A DNA stretch of 18,189 nucleotides from Pseudomonadota bacterium (GTDB lineage Bacteria; Myxococcota; JACRCW01; JAFGSX01). Both the position numbers and the translations under genes were made by a program. Positions 1,425 to 16,019 of the stretch are shown in pieces (position 1 is the stretch's first letter; every line of letters starts with the position of its first letter). The notes beneath the pieces were generated by a model that was not told the DNA's origin, ran no database searches, and saw nothing but the letters and a program-made list of their open reading frames with translations. The stretch is from positions 1 to 18,189 of the forward strand of contig JBDRCO010000061.1 in the NCBI GenBank assembly GCA_043821645.1. The letters run 5' to 3'.

Positions 1425-1855
1425 GAGTCCCCCTGGCGGCAGTTGTGCAGGGCTTTTCAGACGTACCCCAAGGATAGCCATGCGTTGACGTGCTCACAAA
1501 TGACTAGGGCCAAAATGGTCGCCGGCACGACGACCCATCTCGGCCAATGGCAGCCGCCAGCAGCGGTAGAGAGCTCAGCTGGAGTGAAACTGTTGTCGGA
1601 GGCTGCTCCCCCGGCTCTACCAGCCGCCACTGGCAGGCCTGTTCACAACGCTGGGACAGTGCCGCGGGACGAGAGCGAGGCTGGCACTCGACCGGGAGTC
1701 ACCCCGCTTGCGTGCTGGCGGGGGAGGTGGAGCTGTGGCATGGAACAGGGACGGGCCGTGTTGGTCCTGCACCCAGCGGAGTGCTCGGGTGGCAATGTTG
1801 CGGTGCGCGCCTGCGGGGGGCCCGCACCAAGGATCGTCACGAAGGCGTCGGTGCC

Positions 1856-4800
1856 ATGACCGAGCTCACACCGAGCCGTATCGGGCAGTACGAGATCCTC
1901 AAGCGCCTCGCGCGCGGGGGCATGGGTGAGATCTACCTGGCGCGCCAGCTCGGGATCGCGGGTTTCGAGCGCCTTGTCATCGTGAAGACCATGCTGTCGG
2001 ACCTGGCCAGCGAGAGCCACACCGTCGACCAGTTCTTTGACGAGGCGCGGCTGGCCGCCAACCTCAATCACCCCAACGTGGTGTCGACCTTTGAACTGGG
2101 TCGTTCGGAGCAGCGCTACTACATCGCCATGGAATACATCCATGGTGTCAACCTGGCCGAGCTGGAAGCTCAGGTGCGGAGTCGCGGTGCCCGCATCCCG
2201 CCTCGGGTTGGCGCGGCCATGCTGCGGAGCGCAGCCCTGGGCCTGGACTACGCACACCACGCGGTGGACCTGAGCGGGCGTCCCATGCAGGTCGTGCACC
2301 GCGACGTCAGCCCGCAGAACCTGATGGTGCGACTCGACGGCGGCGTCAAGGTTGTCGATTTCGGCATCGCGCACGCCACCAACCGCTTCGTCAAGACCGA
2401 GCACAACGCCATCAAGGGCAAGCTGCTGTACCTGTCACCCGAGCAGGTGCGCGGGGAGCCCCTGACCGAGGCCAGCGATCAGTTCAGCCTGGGCTCGGTG
2501 GCCTGGCGCCTGTTCACCGGGAGTCCTCTGTTCAAGGGCGACAACCCCGGCGAGACCATGTACCGCATCGTGACGGCGCCGGTGCCATCCCTGTGCGAGA
2601 TGGTCGAGGGCTTTCCCGGCGAACTCGACGCGGTCATACAGCGCATGCTTCAGAGGCAGCCACAGGCGCGCTATGCCGATTGCGGCGCGGCAGCCAGGGC
2701 TCTGCAAGCCTACCTGGATGGATCCGGCGGCAATGCCGATCACGAGGTGGCCGACTTCGTTCAGCAGAATGCGGGCACCTTGATCGCGGCGCGCGCCCTG
2801 GTGTCGGCCGGCGATTCCTCGACGATGGCGACCCTGGTGACAGAGACCGCGTCGCTGACGTCAGAGCCCGTGGTCAAGGAAGTCATCCAGGAATCCACAC
2901 TGGTCAACTGTGCGGCCTGCTTGCGCAGCCAGTCGCCGCACAATCTGCGTTGCGAACACTGTGGCGCGCTTCTGATCGGGGACACCTCCACCGGGCCCGT
3001 GGACGGGGTCGATGTCTCGTCGGTCTTCAGGTCGCTGCCTTCGCTCAGTCTCGACGTCATGCGCTCCTCGGTCTCGCAGCGCCCGGAGCTGGCCGCCGAC
3101 GACGGGGACCCCTGGGAGATCCCTGCGACCAAGGTGGATGGCGTGCTGCGCGCCTCGGGTGGCACCAAGCTCAACGAGTTCGGAGAAGCCCTGCAGAGCG
3201 TGGTGCTCGATCTGGGCGCCCAGCAACGCGGTACCCGCGGCGATCCCTCGGAGGCGGCACTGGTGGGACGGAGCGAGGCTGTCAGCCAGGTGCAACAAGC
3301 GCTCGCGCAAGCCCGCGCGGGCACCGCGTGTGGATTGCTCGTGCTGGGCCAGAGCGGCATGGGAAAGACCTTCCTGGCTCGCGAGGTGAACCGGCTGGCT
3401 GTCGAGCAGGGTTTCGCAACCTGCCATGCCATCGCCCTGCGCCGAGGCGTGCCGCTCGCCATGGACCTGTTTCGGCAGTGGGTGATGGGCGTGGCGCTGG
3501 CCTTCGCTCCGGAGCCGCGGAAGCATGGCCTGACCCTGGTCGCCACGGTGGCAGACGCCCTGCAAGCCATGCCGTCCGAGCTCCTCACCCCCTGTCTGCA
3601 GCAGCGCCTGGTGCAACTGTTTGACGGGCTTGGCGGCGAGACCTCGACCACACCCATGGCGCACGCCCAGCGCATGGCCACCGCTGCCGTGCAGTTCCTG
3701 GGGCAGGTCGCGACCCGGCAACCGCTGTTGCTGATCGCCGATGATGTTCACGACGTCGACGAACCCAGCCAGCTGTTGCTGCGGTCTCTGCTCAAGCGGC
3801 TACCGCGTTCCAACCTGTGCGTGCTGGCCACCGGTTTGCCGGGAATCGTCGATGTGATCGCGGACGATCTGCATCGCCTGGAGCTGGAGCCGCTCGACCC
3901 GCAGGACAGCCAGGGGCTCGTCCGGCAGGCGATCGCGGAGCGTGACTGGCCGGCGGGCCTGGACGACGCGGTTGCCCAGGCATCAGGCAATCCCGGTGTG
4001 CTCGCCATGCAGGTACGAGCGCTGATGCTCGAGGGGTACGTCGGCCCACTGCGCAGGCGGGGTCCCAAATCTCTGCACCCGGATCACGCGCTTGGCACCA
4101 TCGAGGGGTGCTCCCACTGGCTGGTGCAACGGCTTGGTCGAACCTCGCTGGAGGTGATGCAGAGCGCAGCCCTGCACGGCTCCGTATTCAGTAGCGAGAT
4201 CCTGATCCGAACCTGTGGTGGCGCCGCGGCCGTGCGGACCGCGCTCGCCGAGGCCGTGCGATTGGGGCTCGTCCATGGGGTGGCGACGGGGGCCGCCGTC
4301 TTCCTGTTCACGCAGAGCAGCTGGCGCCAGTCCTTGCTGGCCACGCTGGCAAGCGAAGCGCGAGAAGGACTCCGGGCCACCTACGCTGTGGAGCTGCACC
4401 GGACTGGCGGTGCCCTCCCTCGAGATGATCTGGAGGTGCTTGCCAGCCTCCCCAGCACCCCCAACACCTTCGATGTACCTACCATGGCACTGCGCGCGCG
4501 GGCGGCGCGGGTCCTGCTCCACCAGGGGATCACCACGCAGGCGCATGGCCATCTCAGCAGCATCCTCGAGCAGGCTGCCCAGGCCTTCTCGGCGTCACAG
4601 CCGGCGACCGGTGAGGCCTGTGACGTGTTGCTCCATGTGGCAGCGCAGGCGGGCCTCATCGATCAGCATCGGGAGCCGGAGCGCGGCAGTGCGGCCATCC
4701 AGCTTGTGCTCGACCTGACGGCGCCCAGCGAGGCACCGCGCGAAAGAGCGCTGGCGCTGTGGTACCTCGCCCAGTGCCATCGCAGTGCACATCGGCGAGC

Positions 4801-5422
4801 CGAGGCGGTGGACGCCATCGAGCAGAGCCAGCTGTGTGCGAGCACCCTGCAGGACCCCGCCCTTCAGGCGACGCTGGACGTCGAGCAAGCCCTGCTGCTG
4901 TGGGCCTCGGGGGAACAGCGCCAGGGGATCTTCCTGCTCGCGGCGGCCCTCGAGAGGCTGGGGCAGGTGCCCATCGGGAACGATGAGACGCTGGCGACGC
5001 GGCAACTGCAGCTGGCGATGGTCTATCGGTTCCTCGCTCGCCTCTACCACCTGCTGGAAAATGACGGGCTGGCCGTGAAGGCGGCCCAGCGGGCACTTGA
5101 GATGGGAATGGCGGCGAGCCAGCTCCACGAGGAAGTGGCTGGTGCTGTGCTGCTGGGCGAGTTCGAGCGCGATAGGGTGCGCGCGGCCACGCTGTTGGAT
5201 GCGACGCTGCAGCGCGTGCAGACCTCGGATGATCCGTGGCTCGGGGCCGAACTCCAGGTGGTCTGTGGACGGGCACTGCAGTCTGTGGAGCCGCGGGCCG
5301 CCGCCGAGCTTTTTTTGCAGGCGCGGGCTGCGGCGGTGCTCAGTGACCGCCGTGACATCTTCACCAGTCGTGGTGGTGACGTCCTCGCTGACCCGACTGC
5401 GACAAGGCTGGCGGTGTTCTGA
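1856..5422 (+). CDS. Hanks-type Ser/Thr protein kinase fused to a zinc ribbon, a P-loop (AAA_16/STAND-like) NTPase and a helical/TPR-like C-terminus (~1188 aa)
   Basis: Kinase motifs ARGGMGEIY, VIVK, HRDVSPQN, DFG, KGKLLYLSPEQ and SDQFSLG. Zn ribbon CAAC-x10-CEHC. LVGR motif, Walker A GQSGMGKT, Walker B LLLIADD, and SGNP. Ala/Leu-rich helical tail. ATG 1856 is preferred over 1547 because the kinase domain begins immediately after it (MTELTPSRIGQYEILKRL). Confidence 0.92.
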   Translation: MTELTPSRIGQYEILKRLARGGMGEIYLARQLGIAGFERLVIVKTMLSDLASESHTVDQFFDEARLAANLNHPNVVSTFELGRSEQRYYIAMEYIHGVNLAELEAQVRSRGARIPPRVGAAMLRSAALGLDYAHHAVDLSGRPMQVVHRDVSPQNLMVRLDGGVKVVDFGIAHATNRFVKTEHNAIKGKLLYLSPEQVRGEPLTEASDQFSLGSVAWRLFTGSPLFKGDNPGETMYRIVTAPVPSLCEMVEGFPGELDAVIQRMLQRQPQARYADCGAAARALQAYLDGSGGNADHEVADFVQQNAGTLIAARALVSAGDSSTMATLVTETASLTSEPVVKEVIQESTLVNCAACLRSQSPHNLRCEHCGALLIGDTSTGPVDGVDVSSVFRSLPSLSLDVMRSSVSQRPELAADDGDPWEIPATKVDGVLRASGGTKLNEFGEALQSVVLDLGAQQRGTRGDPSEAALVGRSEAVSQVQQALAQARAGTACGLLVLGQSGMGKTFLAREVNRLAVEQGFATCHAIALRRGVPLAMDLFRQWVMGVALAFAPEPRKHGLTLVATVADALQAMPSELLTPCLQQRLVQLFDGLGGETSTTPMAHAQRMATAAVQFLGQVATRQPLLLIADDVHDVDEPSQLLLRSLLKRLPRSNLCVLATGLPGIVDVIADDLHRLELEPLDPQDSQGLVRQAIAERDWPAGLDDAVAQASGNPGVLAMQVRALMLEGYVGPLRRRGPKSLHPDHALGTIEGCSHWLVQRLGRTSLEVMQSAALHGSVFSSEILIRTCGGAAAVRTALAEAVRLGLVHGVATGAAVFLFTQSSWRQSLLATLASEAREGLRATYAVELHRTGGALPRDDLEVLASLPSTPNTFDVPTMALRARAARVLLHQGITTQAHGHLSSILEQAAQAFSASQPATGEACDVLLHVAAQAGLIDQHREPERGSAAIQLVLDLTAPSEAPRERALALWYLAQCHRSAHRRAEAVDAIEQSQLCASTLQDPALQATLDVEQALLLWASGEQRQGIFLLAAALERLGQVPIGNDETLATRQLQLAMVYRFLARLYHLLENDGLAVKAAQRALEMGMAASQLHEEVAGAVLLGEFERDRVRAATLLDATLQRVQTSDDPWLGAELQVVCGRALQSVEPRAAAELFLQARAAAVLSDRRDIFTSRGGDVLADPTATRLAVF

Positions 5423-5626
5423 GGTGCATCGCTCGGGACTGGGCTGCCGTGCGTCGCGGCTTTGCCAGGTCCCACCCCAATAGCCCTCCGCAATTCCCGC
5501 AGCTTGGCCGCGCCGACACCTTTTCAAGGGGATGTCCCGGCGGCTCTCGACCCGACAATTACCACCCGCAAAGGTCTGAGTTTCTCGCACTGGAAGTGAC
5601 ACTCCGCGCGGAATGTGTGCCCGATG

Positions 5627-5642
5627 TTCAGTGGTCACTGAA
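5627..5642. promoter_or_regulatory. Perfect inverted repeat TTCAGTG-GT-CACTGAA, candidate transcription-factor operator upstream of the redox operon
   Basis: 7-2-7 palindrome read directly. It lies about 70 bp upstream of the candidate -35 element. The cognate regulator is unknown. Confidence 0.35.
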
Positions 5643-5709
5643 AGTGTCGAGCATCCCCGTTACCGTCCGGAATTTATCGGGATATGACAAATCAATGGGA
5701 CCGAGCTGG

Positions 5710-5737
5710 TTCAAAAGAAGCTCTTCGTGGGTATAAA
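5710..5737 (+). promoter_or_regulatory. Candidate sigma70-type promoter of the hdrCB/Fe-S/flavoprotein operon
   Basis: TTCAAA (5710-5715), a 16-nt spacer, then TATAAA (5732-5737). It sits in the only strongly AT-rich patch of the window (gtataaaaaatttaaatc), about 180 nt before the hdrC start. Confidence 0.45.
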
Positions 5738-5915
5738 AAATTTAAATCGAAAGCCAGCGAGTTCTGCTTGATGTTTTCGTCCCCGGGCCTAGGATGCCCT
5801 CACCTGCCGCAACGAGCAGCGAGACGCCCCCCAGAGACCCCTTCCTCGGTCGCGCCTCGCCCCTGCTGGCGGGTGCGTGGTGCGAAAACGCGTGCCACAG
5901 AGGACAGAGGGAACC

Positions 5916-6323
5916 ATGACGCTGTCTATCTTGCTCAAGGCCCTGCGCGCGGATGCGTTCAGGCGGGTCAACGAGATCTCGGGCCAGAACATTTACCAGT
6001 GCATGCAGTGCGGCACCTGCTCCAGCGTCTGCCCCATGTCTGGCGACATGGAGATCACGCCGCGCCAGGCCATGCTGATGATGCAACACGGGATGATCGA
6101 CGAGGTGGCGGATTCGCGCACTCCGTGGTTGTGCGCGTCCTGCCACAGCTGCCAGGTGCGCTGCCCGCGCGGCATTGAGGTGCCCCGCGTCATGGAGGCG
6201 CTCAGACAGCTCACCCTGCGCGACAACGTGGACCGCATCAACCCGCGGACCATTCCCCAGGACCAGGTGAAGACCCTGCCCCAGATCGCCCTGGTGGCGG
6301 GCTTTCGCAAGATGACGGCGTGA
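5916..6323 (+). CDS. hdrC: Heterodisulfide reductase subunit C-like 2x[4Fe-4S] protein (135 aa)
   Basis: CMQCGTCSSVCP and WLCASCHSCQVRCPRGI ferredoxin motifs, the PRQ motif and the VMEALRQ tail typical of HdrC. SD GAGGGA before ATG 5916. Directly precedes hdrB. Confidence 0.9.
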   Translation: MTLSILLKALRADAFRRVNEISGQNIYQCMQCGTCSSVCPMSGDMEITPRQAMLMMQHGMIDEVADSRTPWLCASCHSCQVRCPRGIEVPRVMEALRQLTLRDNVDRINPRTIPQDQVKTLPQIALVAGFRKMTA

Positions 6324-6331
6324 GGCATGCG

Positions 6332-7213
6332 ATGAAGATCGGTTACTACCCGGGTTGCACGCTCAAGACCAAGGCCAAGAACCTCGAGGATTCGGCGCTG
6401 GCCTCCCTGCAGGCCCTGGGCGTCGAGGTGCAGGAGCTCGAGCGCTGGAACTGCTGCGGCGCGGTGTCCTCGCTCAGCGACGACGACCTGATCCACCAGC
6501 TGGCACCGGTGCGCGACCTGATCCGCGCTCGCGACCAGGGCTGCGACCAGGTCATGACGCTGTGCTCGCAGTGCTTCAACGTGCTCAGGCGCGCCAACAA
6601 CCTGATGCGCGACGACGCCGAGAAGCGCAAGACCCTGAACCTGTTCATGGACGAGGAGGCGGACTACGCCGGCGAGGTCGAGGTGCTGCACTACCTCGAC
6701 CTGCTCGAGCAGCAGGTGGGATGGGACAAGCTGCAGGCCGCGGTGAAGAAGCCCCTCGGTGGCATGAAGGTCGCCCCGTTTTATGGCTGCGCCCTGCTCA
6801 GGCCGCGCGAGGCCGCCCTGGGCGGCGGTTCTCCGGATCAGCTGGAGAAGTTTCTGACCGCCCTGGGCGCCACGCCTGTGGTGTACAGCGGCGAGGATGA
6901 GTGCTGCGGCGCCTACCAGGTGCTGGTGAATCCGGTCGAGGCCACGCGCCAGGCCGGCCGCGTGCTCAAGGGGGCCGAGCAGGGCGGGGCCGAGGCCCTG
7001 GTGCTGAGCTGCCCACTGTGCGAGCACAACCTGGGCAAGCGCCAGGTCGAGCTGGCGGCGGCCGACGGCGAGATCAAACCGCTGCCGGTGCTGTACTTCT
7101 CGCAGCTGCTGGCGGTGGCCCTGGGCCTGGAGCCCGGAGTCAACCACTTCGATCTGAACGCGCCCGTGGTGCGCGACTTTGTGAGCGCGCGCCAGCTGGC
7201 GCCGAACGCCTGA
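6332..7213 (+). CDS. hdrB: Heterodisulfide reductase subunit B-like protein with two CCG domains (293 aa)
   Basis: MKIGYYPGC(9)...WNC(41)C(42)G...C(78)SQC(81) and FYGC(153)...EC(191)C(192)G...SC(227)PLC(230), ending LPVLYFSQLLAVALG. These are two complete Cx31-39CCx33-36CxxC motifs. GAGG precedes ATG 6332. Confidence 0.93.
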   Translation: MKIGYYPGCTLKTKAKNLEDSALASLQALGVEVQELERWNCCGAVSSLSDDDLIHQLAPVRDLIRARDQGCDQVMTLCSQCFNVLRRANNLMRDDAEKRKTLNLFMDEEADYAGEVEVLHYLDLLEQQVGWDKLQAAVKKPLGGMKVAPFYGCALLRPREAALGGGSPDQLEKFLTALGATPVVYSGEDECCGAYQVLVNPVEATRQAGRVLKGAEQGGAEALVLSCPLCEHNLGKRQVELAAADGEIKPLPVLYFSQLLAVALGLEPGVNHFDLNAPVVRDFVSARQLAPNA

Positions 7214-7265
7214 GCGAACCCTTTCGACGATCGCTGATGCAGCGACGCGTGACGAGGTGACACCC

Positions 7266-8009
7266 ATGACGACGGAAGCAACCAGCATGCAGGCGGAGAT
7301 GATCCCCGTCTACATCATGGGCAAGCGCTACTTCGTGCCCGAGGCCCTGACCATCATGAAGGCCATGGAGTATGCCGGGTACAAGTTCATCCGCGGCTGC
7401 GGCTGCCGCGGGGGCATCTGTGGCGCCTGCTCGACGGTGTTCCGCAAGGCTGGCGACTACAAGATCTACAGCGGGCTGGCCTGCCAGACGGTGGTCGAGC
7501 CCGATATGTACCTGACCCAGATCCCCTTCTACCCGGCGCTGCGCATCGGCTACGACTACGACGCCAGCGAGGCGGCGGCCGAGACCATCCACGCCCTGTA
7601 CCCCGAGATCTTCCGCTGCGTGGCGTGCAACGCCTGCACCAAGATTTGCCCCATGGACGTGCAGGTGCTGGACTACATCTCGGCAGCCAAGCGCGGTGAC
7701 ATCGAGGCCGCGGCACACATCAGCTTCGACTGCATCCAGTGTGGTCTGTGTGCCAGCCGCTGCATGGGCGAGATCCCGCAGTACCACATCGCCCAGCTCG
7801 CGCGACGCCTGTACGGCGGCAAGATCGCGCCCCGGGCCGAGCACCTCGAGAAGATGGTCAAGGACATCGCCGCGGAGAAGTACAAAGCGGTGATCGACGA
7901 GCTCAAGGGGCTCAGCGCCGACGAGCTGAAGAAGCTCTACGTCGAGCGCGAGATGGAGCCGTCCATGACCGACGATTCGTGGCGGCCCAAGGCCAACATC
8001 GGTCTGTAG
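7266..8009 (+). CDS. SdhB/FrdB/TfrB-like iron-sulfur subunit ([2Fe-2S] + 2x[4Fe-4S]) (247 aa)
   Basis: [2Fe-2S] motif GCRGGICGAC...LAC, then CVACNACTKICP and CIQCGLCASRC. SD GAGGTG 6 nt before ATG 7266. Immediately upstream of an SdhA/FrdA-family flavoprotein. Confidence 0.88.
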   Translation: MTTEATSMQAEMIPVYIMGKRYFVPEALTIMKAMEYAGYKFIRGCGCRGGICGACSTVFRKAGDYKIYSGLACQTVVEPDMYLTQIPFYPALRIGYDYDASEAAAETIHALYPEIFRCVACNACTKICPMDVQVLDYISAAKRGDIEAAAHISFDCIQCGLCASRCMGEIPQYHIAQLARRLYGGKIAPRAEHLEKMVKDIAAEKYKAVIDELKGLSADELKKLYVEREMEPSMTDDSWRPKANIGL

Positions 8010-8072
8010 CTTTTTGACTTCTGGACTCTGACGGCCCGCCCGTCGACGACGGCGCAGGCACAAGGTGATGCG

Positions 8073-9737
8073 ATGGGTTACCCCGCCAAGCTCGAAGAGT
8101 TGATCAAGGTCGTCGAGAAGACCCGCCCCGAGCGCGTGGCGCGCAAGAACGCAGGCGGCGAGGTCCCCTTTCTCTCGCTCGACGAGCGCAAGGAGATGCT
8201 CAACCATCACCCCGACTTCAAAGAGGAGGGGCGGCGTGCGCTGCAGGTGGGCACCAGCAAGGGCTACAAGATCGCGCATGAATATGCGGATCTGCTCGAG
8301 GCCCGCAGCCGTCTGGATCCGGCCAAGATCGACGTCAGCAAGCCCGACATCGTGACCGACGTGCTGGTCATCGGCGGCGGCGGCGCCGGTACCTCGGCTG
8401 CGATCCTGGCCCGGGAGGGCGGTGCCAAGGTCACCCTGGTGACCAAGCTGCGCCATGGCGACGCCAACACCATGATGGCCGAGGGCGGCATACAGGCCGC
8501 CGACAAGGGCGAGAAGGACTCACCCTACTTCCACTACCTCGACGTCATGGGTGGCGGTCACTTCACCAACGTGCCCGAACTGGTCGAGGCCCTGGTCAAC
8601 GACGCGCCGCTGGCCCTGCACTGGCTCGAAAAGATGGGTGCCAACTTCACCAAGGATGCCACTGGCCGCATGAAGAGCATCCACGGTGGTGGCACCAGCC
8701 GCAAGCGCATGCACTACGCCGCCGACATCACCGGCGCCGAGATCATGCGCACCCTGCGCGACGAGTGCCGCAACCGTGACATCGAGGTCGTCGAGTTCGT
8801 GCCCGCGGTCGAGCTCATCCTCAACCAGCACGGGCAGTGCGCCGGCGCCGTGCTCTACAACCTGGAGACCGAGGAGTACCTGGTGGCCCACGCCAAGGCT
8901 GTCGTGATGGCGACGGGTGGCTCCGGGCGCCTGCACGTGCAGGGCTTCATGACCACCAACCATTACGGCGCCACCGGCGACGGCATCGTCATGGCCTACC
9001 GCGCCGGCGTGCCGGTCAACTTCCTGCACACGGTGCAGTACCACCCGACCGGCATCGTGTTCCCGGAGCAGGCCGAGGGCATCCTGATCACCGAGAAGTT
9101 CCGCGGCTCGGGCGCCAACCTGGTCAACATCGAGGGCAACCAGTTCGTCAACGAGCGCGAGCCCCGTGACGTCGAGGCCGCGTCCATCATCAAGCAGTGC
9201 ACCGAGGTCGGCAAGGGTGTGCCCACGCCCACCGGCAAGGTCGGCGTGTGGCTCGACTCGCCCATGATCGACATGCTCAGCGGCGAGGGCACCGTGCGTC
9301 GCGAGTTCCCGGGCAAGTACATCCTGTACAAGCGCTTCGGCATCGACATCAGCAAGCAGCCCATGCTCATCTTCCCGACGCTGCACTACCAGAACGGCGG
9401 CGTGCAGTTCAACAACAAGGGCGAGACCACGCTGCCTGGCCTGTTCATGGCCGGCGAGGTGTCGGGCGGCGTCCACGGCGCCAACCGCCTCATGGGCAAC
9501 TCGCTGCTCGACATCGTGGTGTTCGGACGCATCTCGGGCAAGAGTGCGGCCGAGTTCGCCAAGGACCAGGCCAAGGACGGCAAGCGCTCGCTGGATCACG
9601 TGGTTGCCTACAACAAGGAGGTCGAGGCCTCCAAGGCCGCCAATGGCCGCGTGGCACCCATGCTGCTGCCCGACTACACGCTGCCCCACGTCAAGGCCAG
9701 GCAGCTGACCACCGAATACCTGGGGACGTTGCGCTAG
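8073..9737 (+). CDS. Succinate dehydrogenase/fumarate reductase-family flavoprotein (FAD_binding_2), TfrA-like (554 aa)
   Basis: FAD-binding VLVIGGGGAG, ANTMMAEGG, GGTSRKR, ATGGSG and TGDG. Dicarboxylate site motifs QYHPTG, ITEKFRG, EPRD, LHYQNGG and GEVSGGVHGANRLMGNSL. SD AAGGTG upstream. Confidence 0.92.
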   Translation: MGYPAKLEELIKVVEKTRPERVARKNAGGEVPFLSLDERKEMLNHHPDFKEEGRRALQVGTSKGYKIAHEYADLLEARSRLDPAKIDVSKPDIVTDVLVIGGGGAGTSAAILAREGGAKVTLVTKLRHGDANTMMAEGGIQAADKGEKDSPYFHYLDVMGGGHFTNVPELVEALVNDAPLALHWLEKMGANFTKDATGRMKSIHGGGTSRKRMHYAADITGAEIMRTLRDECRNRDIEVVEFVPAVELILNQHGQCAGAVLYNLETEEYLVAHAKAVVMATGGSGRLHVQGFMTTNHYGATGDGIVMAYRAGVPVNFLHTVQYHPTGIVFPEQAEGILITEKFRGSGANLVNIEGNQFVNEREPRDVEAASIIKQCTEVGKGVPTPTGKVGVWLDSPMIDMLSGEGTVRREFPGKYILYKRFGIDISKQPMLIFPTLHYQNGGVQFNNKGETTLPGLFMAGEVSGGVHGANRLMGNSLLDIVVFGRISGKSAAEFAKDQAKDGKRSLDHVVAYNKEVEASKAANGRVAPMLLPDYTLPHVKARQLTTEYLGTLR

Positions 9738-9961
9738 CAAATCGAGCCCGATAGGCTGTACCTCTGACTTCCCGATGGCATGGCGTGCCGCGGTCGGGTT
9801 GGGGCCGCGGAGTGTGTGGTGCGCGGATGGCACCACAGGTTCGTGGTTGCGGGACTGGCTCCTGGTGACGACGGCGATTTGAAGTCGCACATGCCTGTGA
9901 CCGCGGTTTCCGCGCGCAGTCTCTTGCGGCGTGGCCTCGTGCCAACGGAGCTCGAAGCGCG

Positions 9962-11353
9962 ATGCTCCCACAGCGATCTCGCGAGACGATTTACAGCGTG
10001 GCGCTCATGGCGACGCTGCTCGTCGGCGTGGGACTGCGCCTGGTTCTTCCTGGCGATCGCGAGTGGAAGGAGGACGAGGCGACATCTCTCGCCATCGGCG
10101 CGGACTTCGTTGCACATCCCCAGCTCGCAACACACGGGCTTCGGTCAAGCGTGGGACTGCACAACCCCCCGGCGACGGTCTACGTGTTCGCTCTGCTGCG
10201 CTTGCTGTCGCGCGGTGACCCGCTCCTGGCGAGCTTGTGTGTCGTCTTGTTTCACTCCCTGGGCATGCTGATGGCAGGTGCGTGGTTGCGCAAGCGCACT
10301 GGGTCGCTGGACTGGTTCGCCGTGTGGTGGGGCCTGGCATACCTCTGCGTGGACGCCTGGTGGGTGATCAATAGCCGGAAGGTCTGGGCGCAGGATCTGC
10401 TGCTGCCCTTCGTGGTCGGCGCGGTCTGGGGCCTGTCGGACCTGTGGGAGCACCCGCAGGTGCGCTGGCGACGGGTCGCACCGGGCATGGTGTGTCTGGT
10501 CCTGGCGAGCCAGATTCACATGACAGGCATCCTTTGGGGTGTGGCACTGGTCGGGGCCACGGTGCTTCACCCCCCGCCGGCTGTGCGCCAGCACTGGAGG
10601 GCACTGTGTGCAGTGGCCGTCGGCGTCACACTCCCAGCCTACCTGCCGTGGATCCCTGAGGTGTGGAGACACCTGCAGCACGATGGTGCTCTGTCTCACA
10701 GCGCAGTGGCTGATGCGGGCTGGATTCACCTCGGCTCCCTGTTCCTTGGTGCGCTCGCGGCGACGGGATCCTCACTGAACTGGTTCATCGACGCCACCGA
10801 GGTTCCGGTACTTGTTCAAACCTTCGGTGGCACGCCCTGGCGAGTGGCACAGAGCCTGGCCTTGCTCCCTCTCGGAGTGACGGCGGTGGCGGCCATGGTG
10901 GTGTGGGTCCGCCATGTGCACCATCGAGACGCGCCGGATGCCTTGTACTGGCTCGCGAGCAGCGTGCCGCTCTTCATCCTTGTCTTGCTCTGTATTCGTA
11001 CGCCGGTACTCCCTCATTACTCGTCGATACTGGCTTTCCCCATGGCTGCTTTCTGGGCCCTGGGCTGGAGCGCGCTGCAGCGGCGAGCGGGCTGGCGTCG
11101 CTGGCTGGTTCGTGCAGTCGCTGGAGCATTGGTTGTCTTGATGACCTGGACCAGCGTGGGGTTTCTGCTCTTCATCCACCACAACGAAGGCAGCCGTGGA
11201 GACTACGGACCTGTCTACAGGGTCAAACTCCAGGCGGCGCAGGAGATCGTGGAGCGGGGCAGCGGCGGCCAGTTCCCCTACGAGATCTACTATCTGGTTC
11301 AGCTCCTTCGTGGCGAACCTGCGCAGATCCCACAGGAGCGCTTCATGCGTTGA
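9962..11353 (+). CDS. GT-C fold (ArnT/PMT-like) polytopic membrane glycosyltransferase (463 aa)
   Basis: N-terminal TM helix followed by the acidic EWKEDEA (DE) motif and GLHNPP loop. Later motifs SRKVWAQDLL, QIH and PHYSSIL. Roughly 10 or more hydrophobic segments by eye. Confidence 0.75.
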   Translation: MLPQRSRETIYSVALMATLLVGVGLRLVLPGDREWKEDEATSLAIGADFVAHPQLATHGLRSSVGLHNPPATVYVFALLRLLSRGDPLLASLCVVLFHSLGMLMAGAWLRKRTGSLDWFAVWWGLAYLCVDAWWVINSRKVWAQDLLLPFVVGAVWGLSDLWEHPQVRWRRVAPGMVCLVLASQIHMTGILWGVALVGATVLHPPPAVRQHWRALCAVAVGVTLPAYLPWIPEVWRHLQHDGALSHSAVADAGWIHLGSLFLGALAATGSSLNWFIDATEVPVLVQTFGGTPWRVAQSLALLPLGVTAVAAMVVWVRHVHHRDAPDALYWLASSVPLFILVLLCIRTPVLPHYSSILAFPMAAFWALGWSALQRRAGWRRWLVRAVAGALVVLMTWTSVGFLLFIHHNEGSRGDYGPVYRVKLQAAQEIVERGSGGQFPYEIYYLVQLLRGEPAQIPQERFMR

Positions 11354-11670
11354 CCAGAATCGTTGGGATGAAGCCCAGGTTTGCGGGACGTGTTCGATAG
11401 GGCCTCCGCGCGCCATCGTGGCCAAACCACCTGAGCACGGGCAGGTGGACAGAAGTACCGATCGGAGGCTGCGTCCGCAGAGGATCTGGCCTCTGAAGTC
11501 AGGCCTTGCATCTCCATGCCCGCCCAGCCGCAGGTCGGGGGAGTTGCCCGAACCGCTCCCCGGTTGCATCCGAGTCCCCCTCGTATACGATGCGCACGTC
11601 GTCACGCGAGGGCGATTATCGCCCGCGGGAGCGGAATGCATCGGTCTGTGTCTACAGGGACCTGGTCCGA

Positions 11671-12576
11671 ATGAGAGGCCCGATCCTCACGCCACGCTGG
11701 GTGGGCTCGCTCGTCAGCCTGGCCTCCCTGGTCCTGGTCTTCGTGCCCGTGTGGACGCTCAGCCAGTGCGCCACCATCGACGGCAGGGCACGCGATCTGG
11801 CTGCCAGGACAGAAGGCATCGCAGGGCCCGAGGACCTGATCCTCGCCGGGCTGCCGCGGGCGGATCCTGGGCGCTCGCGAGGGCGGCTGCTGTTTCCTTT
11901 CAGGCCCCTGTTCGCCGTGGACGCCGACACCGTGGACATGGACCTGCCCACGCTTCCATTTCGTCGCGTGCTCGCCGTGGGGGATCTCGACCCGGAGCGC
12001 CTCAAGCTCGGGCCCGCATCTCGAATCGTCGACACCGTGCGCTTGTTCGAACTCGGGGACCCAGGTCGGCTCCTGCTGTCCCTTGTGGACTACACCCGAA
12101 TCGAGATTCGTGGCGTGCAGGGTACAAGGAGCTGTCGCGTCGCGCATCCGAGCGGCGGTGTGGCCTGTGGCTCCGAGGCCTGGTTCCACATCGGACCGCG
12201 GGTGCAGCGGGTGGGTGGTCGCGATCGGCTGTGCCTGTGGGCGCATCCACCACCGGATGGGGCACAGCTGGCCATCGGTCTGAGCATCGCGCCGGGCACA
12301 GCAGCGCCTGGCTCGCGTCTATCGGTCGATGTGCAGTTTGCCGACGAGGTGCGACACGATCCCCTGCATCCCGAGGTTCAGGTGGAGCTGCGCGAAGAGG
12401 GGTCTGTCCTGGCCTCGACCACCTGCGACAACCACAAAGCTTCTTGCCAGCTGACGGGCCCTTCCGGGATGGATCGCGACCGCCGGCTCGAGCTCGTCGT
12501 CACCACCCCCCATAACGGCCGACAGCTGCTGTGCCTGGGAGGAGGACTGGTGGCGGAGGCTGGAGCACCACCATGA
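11671..12576 (+). CDS. Hypothetical protein with an N-terminal membrane anchor and an extracytoplasmic, probably beta-rich domain (301 aa)
   Basis: Starting at ATG 11671 (AGGGA upstream): MRGPILTPRW, then a hydrophobic segment VGSLVSLASLVLVFVPVW, then a soluble region with several Cys and RLCLWAHPP. Its stop overlaps the next start (ATGA 12573-12576), indicating translational coupling. The start site is uncertain. Confidence 0.7.
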   Translation: MRGPILTPRWVGSLVSLASLVLVFVPVWTLSQCATIDGRARDLAARTEGIAGPEDLILAGLPRADPGRSRGRLLFPFRPLFAVDADTVDMDLPTLPFRRVLAVGDLDPERLKLGPASRIVDTVRLFELGDPGRLLLSLVDYTRIEIRGVQGTRSCRVAHPSGGVACGSEAWFHIGPRVQRVGGRDRLCLWAHPPPDGAQLAIGLSIAPGTAAPGSRLSVDVQFADEVRHDPLHPEVQVELREEGSVLASTTCDNHKASCQLTGPSGMDRDRRLELVVTTPHNGRQLLCLGGGLVAEAGAPP

Positions 12577-14387
12577 GCGATGTGGTGGAGCAGGGCACGC
12601 CGCCGGACGCACTGGCTGCGGCATCTCCTGAACCCTCGCGGCCGGTGGACCGCCGGGGTTCGCTGCTGGTGATCGGCCTGGTGACCTTCGTCACCTGCTG
12701 GCTGCAACCGTACTTCGACGAGATGCACAACCCCAACGCGCTGGTGCGCGTGTACCTGACCCGCGCACTGGTCGACGATGACACGGTGCGCATCGATGCG
12801 CCGATCCGGAGCTTCGGCGATCTCCAGGACAAGTCTGTGCGAGAGGGGCACTTCTACTGCGACAAGGCACCTGGTGTGTCCTTGCTGGCGGTCCCTCTGT
12901 ACGGTGCTCTGCGTCTGCTGTGGCCAGCACAGGCCATCAGCAATCGCACCCTGATTCGCGTCACCCGGGTCGTACTGTGCGGCTTCGCGCTGCCACTCAT
13001 CCTGTGGCTGTGTGAGCTGTGGCTGGCTGGCCTGGGGGTGGCGCCCCGTCGACGGGCAGCTTCCCTGGCAGCCCTGGGCGGCGGCAGCATGTTGCTGCCC
13101 TACAGCCTGGACCTGTTCGGTCACGTGCCCGCGGCACTGTTCGTCGCCGCGACCGCTTACCTGTTGCTCGCGCCCGGCCGCCGCGAAGGAGACTTCCGGC
13201 GAGACGTGGGCGCGGGACTGTGCATCGGGCTGGCAGTGCTCACCGAGTATCCGGCACTGATCCTGGTCGCGGTTCTCGCTCTTGGAGCGCTGATCCGGCG
13301 TCCTGATCGCGTGCGGGCGGCGATGGCCATCGGGCTTGGTGGCCTGATCCCAGCTCTGATCTTTTTCTGGTACAACAACAGCGCCTTCGGCCATCCGCTC
13401 AAGACAGGCTACTCCTTCATCGCCAGCCCGTACTTTCACGCCGTGCACGAGAAGGGATTCCTTGGCATCTCCTGGCCCAGCGCCGAAGCCCTGGCGGGGA
13501 GCCTGCTGTCGCCTGCGCGCGGCATCTTCTTCGTCGCACCCTGGACCCTGCTGGCCCTGCTCGGCGTCGGGCTGTTGTGGCGGCAACGACGTGGCCTGGC
13601 CCTGATTCTCGGCACCTGCATGGTGCTCGACATCCTGTTCATCGCGTCCTTTGGCTACTGGATCGGCGGCTGGTCCGTCGGACAGCGACACCTGACCTCG
13701 CTGATGCCGCTGCTGACCGTGGCCTTCGCCCTCGGTTGGGAGCAGCTGGCACACGACGCCGAGGGCGGACGTCGGCGCATCCTCTCGTCGCTGTTTGCGG
13801 TGAGCGCGACCGTGGGGGTGGTCCTGGTCTCGGCGGCGAGTCTGACCCTGGCGGGCTTCCCCGAGGAGTTTCACAATCCACTGGTCGAGGTGACCGCAAC
13901 CCTGTGGCGCGAGGGCCTGTTTCCCTACACCGTGGGCACCATGCTGCACCTGCCGAGCCGGGTCGCCATCGTGCCCGCGATCCTGGCCTCGCTGCTCCTT
14001 GTCCTTGTCGTGCTTGAGGCCGCAACCGTCGACCCGAACAGGGACCGACGATCGCTCCTGATCCAGGCTACAAGTGCGGCCCTGGTCGGCGCCTGGCTCG
14101 GTGTGCTACCGCTGGCGGGCGAGGGGCCGGTGACGGCGCAGCACCATCGTGAGTGGATCATTGACACCGTGTGGGAACCTCGCGATGCGCTACCACCCAA
14201 GCAGTACGACCCCATCAAGGTGCTGCCCACCCTGCCGCGGCTGGCGCCGGTCTCACCTGTGCTGCTCAGGCACCTGGCGCGGCAAGAGGCGACCGGGGAT
14301 AGCGCCACCCGGGCGCTCGAGCTGATGAGCCAGGCGCGCTTGCTGGAGCTGGCCAGGACCGCGGAGCCGCCGCACGCATCACCCTGA
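12573..14387 (+). CDS. Polytopic membrane protein, probable GT-C fold glycosyltransferase (604 aa)
   Basis: TM1 followed by a loop NPNALVRVYLTRALVDD...DKS...FYCDKAPGVSLLAVP. Later motifs YSLDLFGHVP, LTEYP, YNNSAFGHPLKTGY, LLSPARGIFFVAPW and WIGGWSVGQRHL. Many TM segments. ATGA coupling with the upstream gene. Confidence 0.75.
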   Translation: MSDVVEQGTPPDALAAASPEPSRPVDRRGSLLVIGLVTFVTCWLQPYFDEMHNPNALVRVYLTRALVDDDTVRIDAPIRSFGDLQDKSVREGHFYCDKAPGVSLLAVPLYGALRLLWPAQAISNRTLIRVTRVVLCGFALPLILWLCELWLAGLGVAPRRRAASLAALGGGSMLLPYSLDLFGHVPAALFVAATAYLLLAPGRREGDFRRDVGAGLCIGLAVLTEYPALILVAVLALGALIRRPDRVRAAMAIGLGGLIPALIFFWYNNSAFGHPLKTGYSFIASPYFHAVHEKGFLGISWPSAEALAGSLLSPARGIFFVAPWTLLALLGVGLLWRQRRGLALILGTCMVLDILFIASFGYWIGGWSVGQRHLTSLMPLLTVAFALGWEQLAHDAEGGRRRILSSLFAVSATVGVVLVSAASLTLAGFPEEFHNPLVEVTATLWREGLFPYTVGTMLHLPSRVAIVPAILASLLLVLVVLEAATVDPNRDRRSLLIQATSAALVGAWLGVLPLAGEGPVTAQHHREWIIDTVWEPRDALPPKQYDPIKVLPTLPRLAPVSPVLLRHLARQEATGDSATRALELMSQARLLELARTAEPPHASP

Positions 14388-14444
14388 CAAGGCCTCGCCA
14401 ACCACCGACCCCGCAGGCTGGTGGTGCGAGCGCGCCTGTCAGGG
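14382..14444. terminator. Long imperfect inverted repeat between convergent genes; candidate bidirectional terminator or mRNA-stabilising stem
   Basis: Nested arm pairs CCCTGACA/TGTCAGGG, GGC/GCC, CTCGC/GCGAG and ACCACC/GGTGGT. There is no U-tract on either side, so it is not a classical intrinsic terminator. Confidence 0.4.
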
Positions 14445-16019
14445 CTGCCGTCGCGAGCAGCCCGTCGCATCGCACCAGCTGAGCAGCTCAAAGCCCGACG
14501 GTGTCCTGGCATCGGCCGCAGAAGCACTCGACCGACGACGGGCAAGCCACTGGTGGAATCCTGGTTCCTGGCTCAGCTCAGGAGGTGGCGATGGCCAAAA
14601 ACCCAGGTCGTTGATGAGCACGGTGTTAGAAAATATGATCAGGTCGCCGTCGACCAGGGTGCCGGCGCTGGCGCTGAGTTCCTGGGGTGGCAGGTGCAGC
14701 ACCTGGCGCGCAGGGATGCCGTACAGCACACGCACATGCTCGGGAGACAGATGAAACAGGTAGCTCCCCCTGTCCCCCGCCCAAGGTGAGGGCATCGCCG
14801 GTGGCAAGCTCAGCTGGTGGAAGGCCAGCACGGTGCGTGTCCCGGGCTGCCGTGCTTCGAGCGGCTGCAGCAGGGTGCGGTAGCTGCTGTGCAGGTAGAA
14901 GGGGTCGCGAAACTGCGCAGCGGCCGTCGTGGTCTCGATTGCGCTCCAGGCCAGCACCAGGACCAGGGCCGCCTGCAGCCCGCGCCAGCGACGCACCAGG
15001 GGCCACACGCGCGCCAGGAGCATGGCCGTCAGTGGCGCCAGCACCAGCAGGTAGCGGACCTCGCGTCCGGGCATGGCCTGGAGACCTACAAAGAAACCCA
15101 CCCAGGCCACCGCCAGTCGGCGTCCCGCGCCCTTCTCGCGCCAGCCGATGACGAGGGCCGGGACCAGTAGCAGGGCCACCAGCCAGCCCTGGGCGGGCAG
15201 GTTGCGCAGGTACACCCACCACGGGAACACCATCCCCGCGTCCGCATAGCCCTGGCGTATCGCCTGGACCTGCAACAGCGGACGCAACAGCAGGGGCGCC
15301 TCACCCAGGCTGTCGCCGAGGGCGGCCCCCATGACGACGAGGGTAAAAAGGGCGCTGCCGAGGGCCGCGAGCAGGAGACGCGTGAGCAGGCGCCCGGGAC
15401 GCAGGTTTCCCGCTGCACCACCGTCGCGAACCAGAGCCACACCGACGAGGACCACGACCCAGCACAGAGCATACACGTGCTTGATCAGAGGCAAGGCGGC
15501 ACCGACCACGACCAGCAGCAGCAGGTTCCATGGCGAGGGCCTTCGACGTTCGCGCTCCGCCCCGTGCAGCAAGAATAGGAAGAGCGCCCCGGGCAAAATG
15601 TCGTGGCTGATGAAGGGCGCGTAGCTGGCCCATAGGGGTGTGAGCACGGCCCCGAGCGCGGCGACCCAGCGCGCCGCGGGATCCTCGATGTGGCGAACGA
15701 TCTGCCGCAGCACCAGCGCCAGGGCCCCGAGGTGCAGGAACGCCATCAGCGCATGGGGCAGGCGTACGTCCAGGGGATGAAGCTGCCAGGTGCCGTGCAG
15801 CCACACCGCGGGCAGCTGCAGCAGGGCCATGAGCGGCGCGCGGATGGGGTTGTAGTCCGCATCCTGGCCGAGCATGGCGCGAGCGTTGCACAGGGCCTCG
15901 AAGCCGTCGTAGTACTCGACATCCAGGGACCAGGCGGTCCAGCCGAGCCACAGTGCGACCGGGGCCAGGATCCACCAGATCCTCGCCGTCCGGATGCGAT
16001 GAAAGGACCACGACGCCAT
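14439..16019 (-). CDS. Polytopic membrane protein, probable GT-C fold glycosyltransferase with a C-terminal soluble domain (526 aa)
   Basis: TM1 followed by the acidic loop DVEYYDGFEALCNAR...YNPIRAPL. Later motifs SHDILPG, LIKH, PWWVYL and REVRYLLVLAP (the late RY motif typical of GT-C enzymes). About 10 TM segments by eye. Confidence 0.75.
   Translation of the reverse strand: MASWSFHRIRTARIWWILAPVALWLGWTAWSLDVEYYDGFEALCNARAMLGQDADYNPIRAPLMALLQLPAVWLHGTWQLHPLDVRLPHALMAFLHLGALALVLRQIVRHIEDPAARWVAALGAVLTPLWASYAPFISHDILPGALFLFLLHGAERERRRPSPWNLLLLVVVGAALPLIKHVYALCWVVVLVGVALVRDGGAAGNLRPGRLLTRLLLAALGSALFTLVVMGAALGDSLGEAPLLLRPLLQVQAIRQGYADAGMVFPWWVYLRNLPAQGWLVALLLVPALVIGWREKGAGRRLAVAWVGFFVGLQAMPGREVRYLLVLAPLTAMLLARVWPLVRRWRGLQAALVLVLAWSAIETTTAAAQFRDPFYLHSSYRTLLQPLEARQPGTRTVLAFHQLSLPPAMPSPWAGDRGSYLFHLSPEHVRVLYGIPARQVLHLPPQELSASAGTLVDGDLIIFSNTVLINDLGFWPSPPPELSQEPGFHQWLARRRSSASAADARTPSGFELLSWCDATGCSRRQP

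Follow-up and report, generated by a model that had tools for sequence, protein, structure and literature searches.

A four-gene hdrCB-frdBA-like cluster predicted to encode a soluble fumarate reductase, and its association with dissimilatory sulfur genes

The four genes and their cofactor sites

The window examined in this work is the whole of an 18,189-nt stretch of DNA (67% G+C) from contig C61 of a Myxococcota-like metagenome-assembled genome (MAG) of 7.07 Mb in 140 contigs, with an estimated completeness of 94.7%. The element in question is a cluster of four open reading frames (ORFs) on its forward strand, between positions 5916 and 9737, which we interpret as a putative soluble fumarate reductase wired to subunits of the heterodisulfide reductase (Hdr) type. 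The genes lie in the order hdrC-like, hdrB-like, iron-sulfur (FeS) protein and flavoprotein, with intergenic gaps of 8, 52 and 63 nt, and both coordinates and gaps agree with an earlier interpretation made from the letters alone (i.e., the sequence-only reading), which had described four tightly spaced, co-oriented genes. The 52-nt gap holds for an FeS gene starting at the ATG at 7266, an alternative start being the GTG at 7257.

The first gene (5916-6323) encodes an HdrC-like ferredoxin subunit of 135 amino acids (aa), similar to FrdF, with two [4Fe-4S] motifs (Pfam Fer4_8, 43.9 bits). Its best NCBIfam match is the QmoC N-terminal domain (86 bits), ahead of HdrC TIGR03290 (69 bits for a cut-off of 160), both matches being under cut-off; it shares 37% identity over 78 residues with the host's own QmoC, and its profile matches the first ~100 residues (i.e., the two-cluster core) of solved HdrC chains. 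Cysteines C29, C32, C35, C39, C73, C76, C79 and C83, the expected ligands of two [4Fe-4S] clusters, are invariant in an alignment of 37 sequences, drawn, like those used below for the other two FeS-cluster proteins (37-39 homologues each), from related loci. The second gene (6332-7213) encodes a 293-aa HdrB-like subunit, similar to FrdE, with two CCG domains (Pfam CCG, 71.9 bits, in two stretches) and two predicted non-cubane [4Fe-4S] clusters. It scores almost equally with the HdrB model TIGR03288 (147 bits, cut-off 345) and with MFR SdhE NF042965 (142 bits, cut-off 500), neither of which it passes, and its profile aligns end to end with the solved methanogen HdrB 8rvu_b (204 bits, E 2e-59). 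Cysteines C9, C41, C42, C78 and C81, and C153, C191, C192, C227 and C230, are invariant over 37 sequences and make up two complete CX(31-37)CCX(34-35)CXXC sets.

The third gene (7266-8009) encodes an FeS subunit of ~247 aa, similar to FrdB, with motifs for one [2Fe-2S] and two four-cysteine [4Fe-4S] clusters (i.e., Cx4Cx2C...C and two CxxCxxCxxxC). It matches Fer4 dicluster families and, weakly, Fer2 (20.6 bits, below the Pfam cut-off of 21); its matches to solved SdhB/FrdB chains are weak and of ferredoxin type, and its ESM Atlas neighbours bear the names of 2Fe-2S/4Fe-4S proteins. Counting residues from the GTG at 7257, cysteines C50, C55, C58 and C76, C121, C124, C127 and C131, and C159, C162, C165 and C169 are invariant in 39 sequences, so that all 30 cluster cysteines of the three proteins (10 in HdrB, 8 in HdrC and 12 in the FeS protein) are invariant.

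The fourth gene (8073-9737) encodes a 554-aa flavoprotein, similar to FrdA, with a 95-residue N-terminal extension, a short C-terminus and a flavin adenine dinucleotide (FAD) predicted to be bound non-covalently. FAD_binding_2 (Pfam, 269 bits) spans residues 96-478, the N-terminal 95 and C-terminal 76 residues have no Pfam match even at E<=10, and Succ_DH_flav_C (PF02910) finds no match in the protein. Compared with solved chains of SdhA, FrdA and flavocytochrome c3, and in an alignment of 47 rows, the flavoprotein keeps the whole C4-dicarboxylate site (His297, His324-Pro-Thr, Thr340/Glu341/Arg344, Arg365, His438 and Arg472). The HPT, TExxR, RD, H and R motifs are conserved in 14 of 14 rows of its tight family, across which the site is identical; some distant members of the wider clade with the N-terminal extension (the N-extension clade) vary at the first His. 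At the position of the FAD-linking His of covalent-FAD enzymes (SdhA/FrdA) stands Asn132; all 23 N-extension rows share this Asn, which soluble fumarate reductases have too, and a Gly stands there in the one TfrA representative that passes the TfrA cut-off. In Escherichia coli FrdA and SdhA, Blaut and colleagues are said to have found in 1989 that with a non-covalent FAD succinate oxidation is lost and fumarate reduction retained; against this background, Asn132 predicts a flavin bound non-covalently and an enzyme that reduces fumarate instead of oxidising succinate. An identity as adenosine 5'-phosphosulfate reductase was considered and rejected, since the dicarboxylate-site residues are absent from AprA and present here.

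No transmembrane stretch is predicted in any of the four proteins, the highest 19-residue Kyte-Doolittle mean being 1.53, in a segment likewise conserved in methanogen HdrB; nor is there any leader of the twin-arginine translocation (Tat) or Sec-like type at their N-termini, as the sequence-only reading had noted for signal peptides. It had also placed the cluster among unrelated genes with no hdrA, mvhD, flx or cytochrome b gene, and Pfam finds none of these among the 11 flanking ORFs of the window, its assigned flanks comprising a Ser/Thr kinase-AAA_16 protein, an SRAP gene and an alcohol dehydrogenase gene besides an unassigned hydrophobic ORF. This last, 463 aa long and without family, starts 224 nt downstream and is not conserved next to the cluster in related loci.

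The sequence-only reading had placed an AT-rich promoter region ahead of the cluster. The presumed promoter and 5' leader (5640-5915, forward strand) is non-coding and was recognised from its drop in G+C to 0.62, as compared to 0.65-0.69 around it, which is a mere compositional dip; a consensus scan of 5400-10100 gave no sigma-70-like site and no convincing terminator, and the folding of the downstream spacer is unremarkable (z = -0.5). Directly upstream of the operon and on the same strand, positions 1547-5422 encode a 1291-aa protein with an N-terminal Ser/Thr kinase followed by an AAA_16/NACHT-like ATPase of STAND type. Downstream, positions 9962-16019 are occupied by long ORFs without Pfam family (the hydrophobic one at 9962-11353, then 11506-12576, 12531-14387 and, on the minus strand, 14439-16019), some of which may be shadow frames given the high G+C.

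Relatives, conserved linkage and dissimilatory sulfur genes

No NCBIfam model passes for the flavoprotein (TfrA NF004900, 343 bits for a cut-off of 718; SdhA/FrdA, 306 bits; NadB TIGR00551, 289 bits for a cut-off of 452.75), and its nearest named family is TfrA, though below cut-off. Its homologues number in the thousands (8000 of 8000 scored candidates passed), the best 120 being 75-100% identical, with source labels of Myxococcota, Planctomycetota, Zixibacteria and others, and identity across phyla is 70-80%. A scan without word index gave 2598 representatives at E<=1e-30, with full-length matches, including the N-terminal extension, down to ~40% identity; the next-best representatives were TfrA-like (one over the TfrA cut-off), mycobacterial Sdh1-like, NadB and SdhA/Mfr proteins. 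None of nine distant N-extension members matches any NCBIfam model at E<=1e-130. In the ESM Atlas, large clusters of Bacillota and Nitrospirota proteins share the architecture of the flavoprotein at 530-555 aa, whilst nothing could be learnt from long fused relatives (P0163 joins SdhA to SdhB and falls in another clade, and P0122 has an extra N-terminus without family).

The sequence-only reading had left the place of the flavoprotein among TfrA, SdhA and NadB to phylogeny. In a tree of 47 rows (IQ-TREE quick maximum likelihood, LG+G4, rooted on the long AprA branch) the N-extension clade, with 23 rows and members of ~480-560 aa, has a support of 99 in the Shimodaira-Hasegawa-like approximate likelihood ratio test (SH-aLRT) and stands apart from TfrA-like, PRK07803, NadB and SdhA/Mfr proteins, the true TfrA representative P0177 (765 bits) falling outside it. 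Within it lies the tight family of 14 rows (SH-aLRT 100), where the proteins of hdrA-linked clusters branch first and seven flavoproteins of four-gene clusters make up a subclade (support 99) of short branches, with members from five named phyla.

Conservation of the four-gene linkage had been set beforehand as one of the points on which the proposal could fail. A search of the species-genome collection confirmed at least 555 relatives, of which the best 80 loci were analysed; 13 of these have less than 2.3 kb upstream of the flavoprotein gene, which leaves 67 informative. The order hdrC-hdrB-FeS-flavoprotein is found in 54 of the 67, with an insert in 11 and ended by the locus boundary in two, such that all 67 are compatible with the linkage of the four genes, and the FeS gene always adjoins the flavoprotein gene. 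The linkage is far beyond chance. The inserts, of 1.3-5.2 kb, are located between hdrB and the FeS gene, and in 10 of 11 they carry hdrA-like/mvhD-type sets (e.g., hdrA and mvhD in L075, L079 and L083; two QmoA/QmoB-like genes in the Dehalococcoidia-labelled L068 and L085; and a gene for a 1020-aa HdrA-like protein, mvhD and an FrhB-like gene in the L065 group). In L080 an abortive-infection-like AbiJ_NTD4 gene (5962-6822) sits between hdrB and the FeS gene of an otherwise four-gene-type locus. Directly upstream of hdrC, two of the hdrA-linked variants have a 610-aa HEAT-repeat protein of the PBS-lyase type (L075, 1425-3257; L083, 1556-3394).

Apart from the cluster genes themselves, no neighbour is conserved across phyla in the best 80 loci. 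Families similar to sucC and sucD (assigned by a Pfam scan of one representative of each) recur in 9 of the 80 loci each, directly beside the cluster in Ignavibacteria- and Thermodesulfobacteriota-labelled ones, which ties the flavoprotein/FeS pair to succinate. Two Ignavibacteriaceae-labelled loci (L014 and L049) have a canonical SdhB (Fer2_3) and a second SdhA-like gene a few genes downstream, i.e., both enzyme types side by side.

The genomes in which the cluster occurs carry, for the most part, genes of dissimilatory sulfur metabolism. The dsrA model (TIGR02064, at its curated cut-off) passes in 45 of 50 genomes with the canonical four genes, and 47 of 50 have a match at E<=0.001; with the four remaining canonical loci included, 47 of the 54 genomes pass the cut-off and 50 have some match. 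In the same 50 genomes aprA is over cut-off in 46. The 13 genomes with hdrA-linked variants (L063, L065, L068, L069, L072, L075, L076, L077, L079, L082, L083, L084 and L085, the last but one classed so by an FrhB-like upstream gene only) differ, with dsrA in one of 13 (L072) and a DsrC-family gene in three of 13, that of L075 being on a separate contig and not next to the cluster. These counts take in the MAGs as reached through their loci, whatever their completeness.

Two samples taken by lineage, rather than by locus, point the same way. Among 301 Myxococcota genomes at least 85% complete, with carriers defined by a homologue at E<=1e-150, there are nine carriers and 17 genomes with dsrA, which is found in six of nine carriers as opposed to 11 of 292 non-carriers. 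Among 201 genomes of the class assigned by the tool to an Ignavibacteria-labelled genome (a class that also contains Zixibacteria-labelled ones), the flavoprotein is present in 44 and dsrA in 70, all 44 carriers being dsrA-positive and none of 131 dsrA-negative genomes carrying it. The stand-alone form is thus nearly confined to genomes bearing dsrA and aprA, whilst dsr-less relatives keep HdrA in cis. No report of such a dsr-restricted distribution of the four-gene form appears in those parts of the literature on dsr, hdrBC and fumarate reductase that were available.

The host itself fits this distribution. A search of its genome for hdrA, dsrC and sdhCD located HdrA-like genes on contigs C9 and C81, dsrC on C81 and a type-B sdhCAB on C1. 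On one strand of C81 (~1-26000; L109 and L110) lie dsrAB, a GltD/DsrL-like gene, a dsrN-like gene, dsrC and dsrMKJOP, and on the other lysR, aprBA, a gene for a CxxCxxCC protein, qmoABC and sat; the named dsr genes (dsrA, dsrB, dsrC and dsrMKJOP) pass their NCBIfam cut-offs, and the dissimilatory set is complete. The host DsrC ends in ...GACKVAGLPKPTGCV, with both functional cysteines present. The word stand-alone, used of the cluster in the sequence-only reading, is true of the cluster in this window, but not of all its relatives, some of which have hdrA and mvhD inside the cluster, nor of the host as a whole, which has HdrA/Qmo-like genes on C9 and C81. A NadB-like protein is encoded on C111 as well, and the tree joins it to NadB at a support of 100. 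A role for the four genes as the cell's main complex II was rejected in view of the sdhCAB on C1.

Two observations on these contigs stand apart from the cluster. The contiguous sulfate-reduction island of C81 lies on a Myxococcota-like MAG, dsrA being present in 17 of the 301 Myxococcota genomes sampled. On C9 (~16000-25600; L108 4308-13558), a 1378-aa fusion of two CCG domains and two HdrA-like flavoprotein cores is preceded by an aldehyde:ferredoxin oxidoreductase gene and followed by a 662-aa MvhD-Fer4_20-Pyr_redox_2 (HdrL/GltD-like) protein; the genome search found one in-frame TGA in the MvhD frame, which may thus encode a selenoprotein.

The possible source of the electrons

The interpretation we favour starts from what is directly supported, namely how the genes are built, their motifs for cofactors, a complete fumarate site, a linkage conserved among relatives and the occurrence of the cluster together with dsr and apr. 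From these we infer the rest, i.e., that the four proteins form a single complex, the direction of its reaction and its donor. Probably, to judge from the sequences, the cluster encodes a single soluble fumarate reductase that has no anchor, is of the FrdABEF or Hdr-linked type and receives its electrons through HdrBC. Fumarate would be reduced at the non-covalently bound FAD of the 554-aa flavoprotein, which would receive its electrons via three clusters (one [2Fe-2S] and two [4Fe-4S]) in the FeS subunit, itself presumably fed by the two HdrC-like [4Fe-4S] clusters and the two HdrB-like non-cubane ones. This wire, from HdrB through HdrC, FeS and FAD to fumarate, was already proposed in the sequence-only reading, and it fits all the sequence tests (30 invariant cysteines and an intact fumarate site).

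In those related anaerobes with HdrA and MvhD in the cluster, fumarate would probably be the high-potential acceptor of an electron-splitting Hdr complex, and the stand-alone four-gene form appears to be a derived version of this hdrA-containing cluster. Its HdrB site would draw electrons from the redox hub of sulfate respiration, the likeliest donor, to which we give somewhat less than an even chance, being reduced DsrC with the thiols of its two C-terminal cysteines. This would make the enzyme a DsrC:fumarate oxidoreductase, a bacterial counterpart of the methanogen thiol:fumarate reductase. DsrC is favoured because TfrAB, the nearest biochemically known architecture, oxidises thiols at its CCG domains (Heim and colleagues reportedly showed in 1998 that it oxidises CoM-SH and CoB-SH there, reducing fumarate), because the catalytic cysteine set of HdrB is intact, and because the four-gene form occurs nearly only where dsr is present, relatives without dsr having HdrA encoded in cis.

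Several points weigh against DsrC. Four of the 54 genomes with canonical loci have no dsrA match (L022, L048, L052 and L078), three Myxococcota genomes have 50-55% identical homologues without dsrA, and 26 of the 70 dsrA-positive genomes in the 201-genome sample lack the flavoprotein. No dsr, apr, qmo or sat gene is found in the flanks of 103 related loci, save HdrA-like matches in the variant clusters, so that the association with dsr/apr is a genome-wide one only. The genomes compared are related MAGs, so the counts overstate independence, and binning errors are possible. Moreover, aprA and qmo co-occur with the cluster as tightly as dsrA does, a pattern that cannot single out DsrC. All ten HdrB cysteines are also kept in the 10 of 13 hdrA-linked relatives without a DsrC-family gene, which suggests that HdrB can work without DsrC and may be a mere relay. 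Finally, the oxidised DsrC produced by DsrAB is, according to what Santos and colleagues are said to have reported in 2015, a trisulfide, given which a simple dithiol/disulfide cycle of DsrC with fumarate is hypothetical. The guess of a DsrC-like partner in the sequence-only reading thus gains from the near-confinement to dsrA/aprA genomes and from the two-cysteine DsrC of the host, but QmoAB in trans or quinol may be the donor instead. As a whole, the mechanism of a soluble, HdrBC-wired fumarate reductase fed by DsrC is one we advance tentatively, as a little less than an even bet.

The relay just mentioned has an obvious candidate behind it: HdrCB could dock onto an HdrA-type flavoprotein encoded elsewhere, most likely QmoAB, with HdrB as electron relay only. 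QmoAB acting in trans is as compatible with the phyletic pattern as DsrC, the host has its qmoABC beside aprBA, and the 46 of 50 carrier genomes with aprA, the QmoC-like score and identity of the HdrC-like subunit, and the two QmoA/QmoB-like genes inserted in the Dehalococcoidia-labelled clusters would all fit it. On the other hand, none of the loci examined has a qmo gene next to the four-gene cluster, the QmoAB of the host already has its own QmoC, and a pure relay has no need of the full catalytic HdrB cysteine set, though the hdrA-linked variants keep this set too. QmoAB is not known from any biochemical study to serve a second reductase, which counts against this arrangement. It has precedents of another sort, in that QmoAB-HdrBC modules are described in PMC10504309, QmoAB-HdrCB serving AprBA in Gram-positive sulfate reducers provides an analogy, and Qmo feeding FrdABEF is speculated upon in PMC5947623. 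On balance we consider QmoAB unlikely as the donor.

If the donor were menaquinol instead, the enzyme could be a type-E-like menaquinol:fumarate reductase, its HdrB-like subunit (i.e., FrdE) being peripheral on the membrane and oxidising menaquinol there, by analogy with what is proposed for the Sulfolobus-type SdhE and the MfrE of Campylobacterota. The near-equal scores of the HdrB-like subunit with the SdhE and HdrB models leave room for this, although the former is far below the SdhE cut-off. The second cluster motif of the FeS protein is a four-cysteine one, and not the three-cysteine [3Fe-4S] motif; such a four-cysteine motif is a type E trait. A self-contained, quinol-using enzyme would also transfer easily between phyla, but menaquinone use would leave the confinement to dsrA-bearing genomes unexplained. 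Other features of the cluster argue for a soluble enzyme or for one not linked to quinones: there is no hydrophobic or amphipathic segment beyond the one also conserved in soluble HdrB, an HdrC ferredoxin occupies the place of SdhF, the FAD is predicted to be non-covalent, unlike that of quinone-linked complex II flavoproteins, and relatives insert a soluble HdrA-MvhD module. In addition, the host already has its type-B sdhCAB. For these reasons a menaquinol-linked enzyme seems quite improbable to us, even if the genome paper of Syntrophobacter fumaroxidans classes the similar frdABEF as type E Frd (PMC3570798).

The substrate itself could be another one, such as L-aspartate or some other enoate or dicarboxylate, in which case the fumarate-type site would be family heritage only. 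NadB has the same site residues, its model also scores 289 bits, the first His varies in some distant clade members, and the N-extension clade is known from sequence, without an assayed member. NadB, however, functions with no FeS protein at its side, in contrast to the flavoprotein here, whose gene always adjoins one for an FeS protein, and the host has a separate NadB-like gene; with the sucCD context, the identity of the site across the tight family and the induction of FrdABEF by fumarate (PMC8691401), this makes a substrate other than fumarate very unlikely. Least probable of all, and hardly to be expected, is the reverse direction, i.e., a soluble succinate dehydrogenase passing electrons via HdrCB to the DsrC trisulfide, by which sulfate reducers oxidising propionate or succinate would avoid reverse electron transport through menaquinone. 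The cluster does co-occur with dsr genes and adjoins sucCD in some loci, and its counterpart FrdABEF is present in sulfate-grown S. fumaroxidans, where reversal has been considered (PMC5947623). Against this, the FAD-linking His is replaced by Asn throughout the clade (with the loss of succinate oxidation that the E. coli data would entail), the succinate/fumarate couple (+30 mV) is ill suited to drive sulfur reduction, and FrdABEF is most abundant with fumarate as acceptor (PMC8691401).

Returning to DsrC as donor, its generalisation would be that stand-alone HdrCB-FrdBA is a DsrC:fumarate oxidoreductase, with DsrC as a general cytoplasmic redox carrier beyond its part as co-substrate in sulfite reduction. 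Across at least seven named phyla, sulfate reducers would have in fumarate a quinone-independent sink, the enzyme having arisen, when DsrC had become available, from an electron-splitting ancestor with HdrA. We put this forward more tentatively still, at roughly one chance in three. The contrast of hdrA-linked clusters in dsr-less genomes and stand-alone ones in dsr-bearing genomes yields a clear-cut hypothesis open to bench tests. If the four-gene form does use DsrC or the Qmo/Dsr machinery, C4-dicarboxylate metabolism would be directly linked to sulfate respiration, and the 'bacterial heterodisulfide' idea would have its second concrete enzyme.

Comparison with known systems

Amongst the systems of the same genomes, AprBA with QmoABC or with QmoAB-HdrCB resembles the cluster in pairing a flavoprotein of the fumarate reductase superfamily with a small FeS partner, the two being served by Hdr-like proteins; unlike the flavoprotein here, AprA lacks the dicarboxylate-site residues, and AprB is a small ferredoxin-type protein with a C-terminal domain of its own. 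In the type E succinate:quinone reductases (SdhABEF) and in MfrABE, as in our cluster, a CCG subunit replaces the cytochrome b anchor, and the second motif of the FeS protein has four cysteines. They differ in that the SdhA-labelled rows P0218 and P0205 and the SdhA of the host have His at the FAD position, where the flavoprotein here has Asn132; the MfrA-like row P0225 is aligned with Ala there. Moreover, SdhF is not a ferredoxin, and MfrA carries a Tat leader.

The HdrABC-MvhAGD complex of methanogens (PDB 5odc and 8rvu) provides the model for the entry module, with an end-to-end match for HdrB, a match to the core of HdrC and all of the cluster cysteines, and relatives of our cluster add HdrA and MvhD as well. 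In this operon, by contrast, there is no HdrA or MvhD, the partner is a fumarate reductase pair instead of a hydrogenase, and HdrC is shorter (135 aa compared to ~185 aa in methanogen HdrABC).

For the reductase module, the closest biochemically known counterpart is TfrAB of Methanothermobacter (EC 1.3.4.1), which is likewise soluble and without the FAD-linking His, TfrA being the nearest model to our flavoprotein, and which joins an FeS module ([2Fe-2S] and [4Fe-4S]) to two CCG domains in what would be the same logic, from thiols to fumarate. TfrB is one fused protein, however, whereas here the FeS protein and HdrB are split and HdrC is added (i.e., three genes), and the partial scores with TfrB NF004898 amount to 28-32 bits for a cut-off of 385. 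The flavoprotein also belongs to the separate N-extension clade and lacks Succ_DH_flav_C, and CoM and CoB (coenzymes M and B) are cofactors of methanogens. Anchor-less, two-subunit tfrAB-type reductases joined to Hdr modules are proposed in bacteria too, with flxABCD-hdrABC in tubeworm symbionts and Thioflavicoccus mobilis (PMC6315080, PMC11636981, PMC13147460) and in the Hdr-linked 'succinate operon' of Pseudoclostridium thermosuccinogenes (PMC7282089), where a ferredoxin-coupled fumarate reduction is suggested (PMC6315080, PMC11636981, PMC7282089). By their published descriptions, on which this comparison is made, those clusters include flxABCD and hdrA and are reported without any dependence on dsr, unlike the hdrCB-only cluster considered here.

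The nearest likeness is to FrdABEF of Syntrophobacter fumaroxidans MPOB (Sfum_4092-4095), described as a type E Frd without membrane subunit (PMC3570798). In a sulfate-reducing host, it has the same four-gene content (i.e., a flavoprotein with the catalytic residues, an FeS protein, a cysteine-rich FrdE and an FeS-bearing FrdF) and no anchor; the likeness is drawn from the printed description, as a query with a Desulfobacteria-labelled HdrB gave 23 loci and none from S. fumaroxidans, and the host here is a Myxococcota-like MAG. Growth on fumarate raises FrdABEF 11- to 45-fold (PMC8691401); the enzyme is also present with sulfate, was never purified according to PMC5947623, and the same paper suggests DsrC or Qmo as its feeder. 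The novelty, which the sequence-only reading had left to be checked, is thereby much reduced, since an anchor-less type E frdABEF (PMC3570798), a DsrC link (PMC5947623) and Hdr-linked tfrAB-like enzymes (PMC6315080, PMC7282089) are all in print. What is new in this work is the contrast of stand-alone and hdrA-linked forms in their dsr genes, the kind of enzyme itself being already described. The family so described is very widespread (at least 555 relatives) yet never purified, and if its four-gene form is indeed fed from sulfate respiration, this would explain the presence of FrdABEF in Syntrophobacter grown on sulfate.

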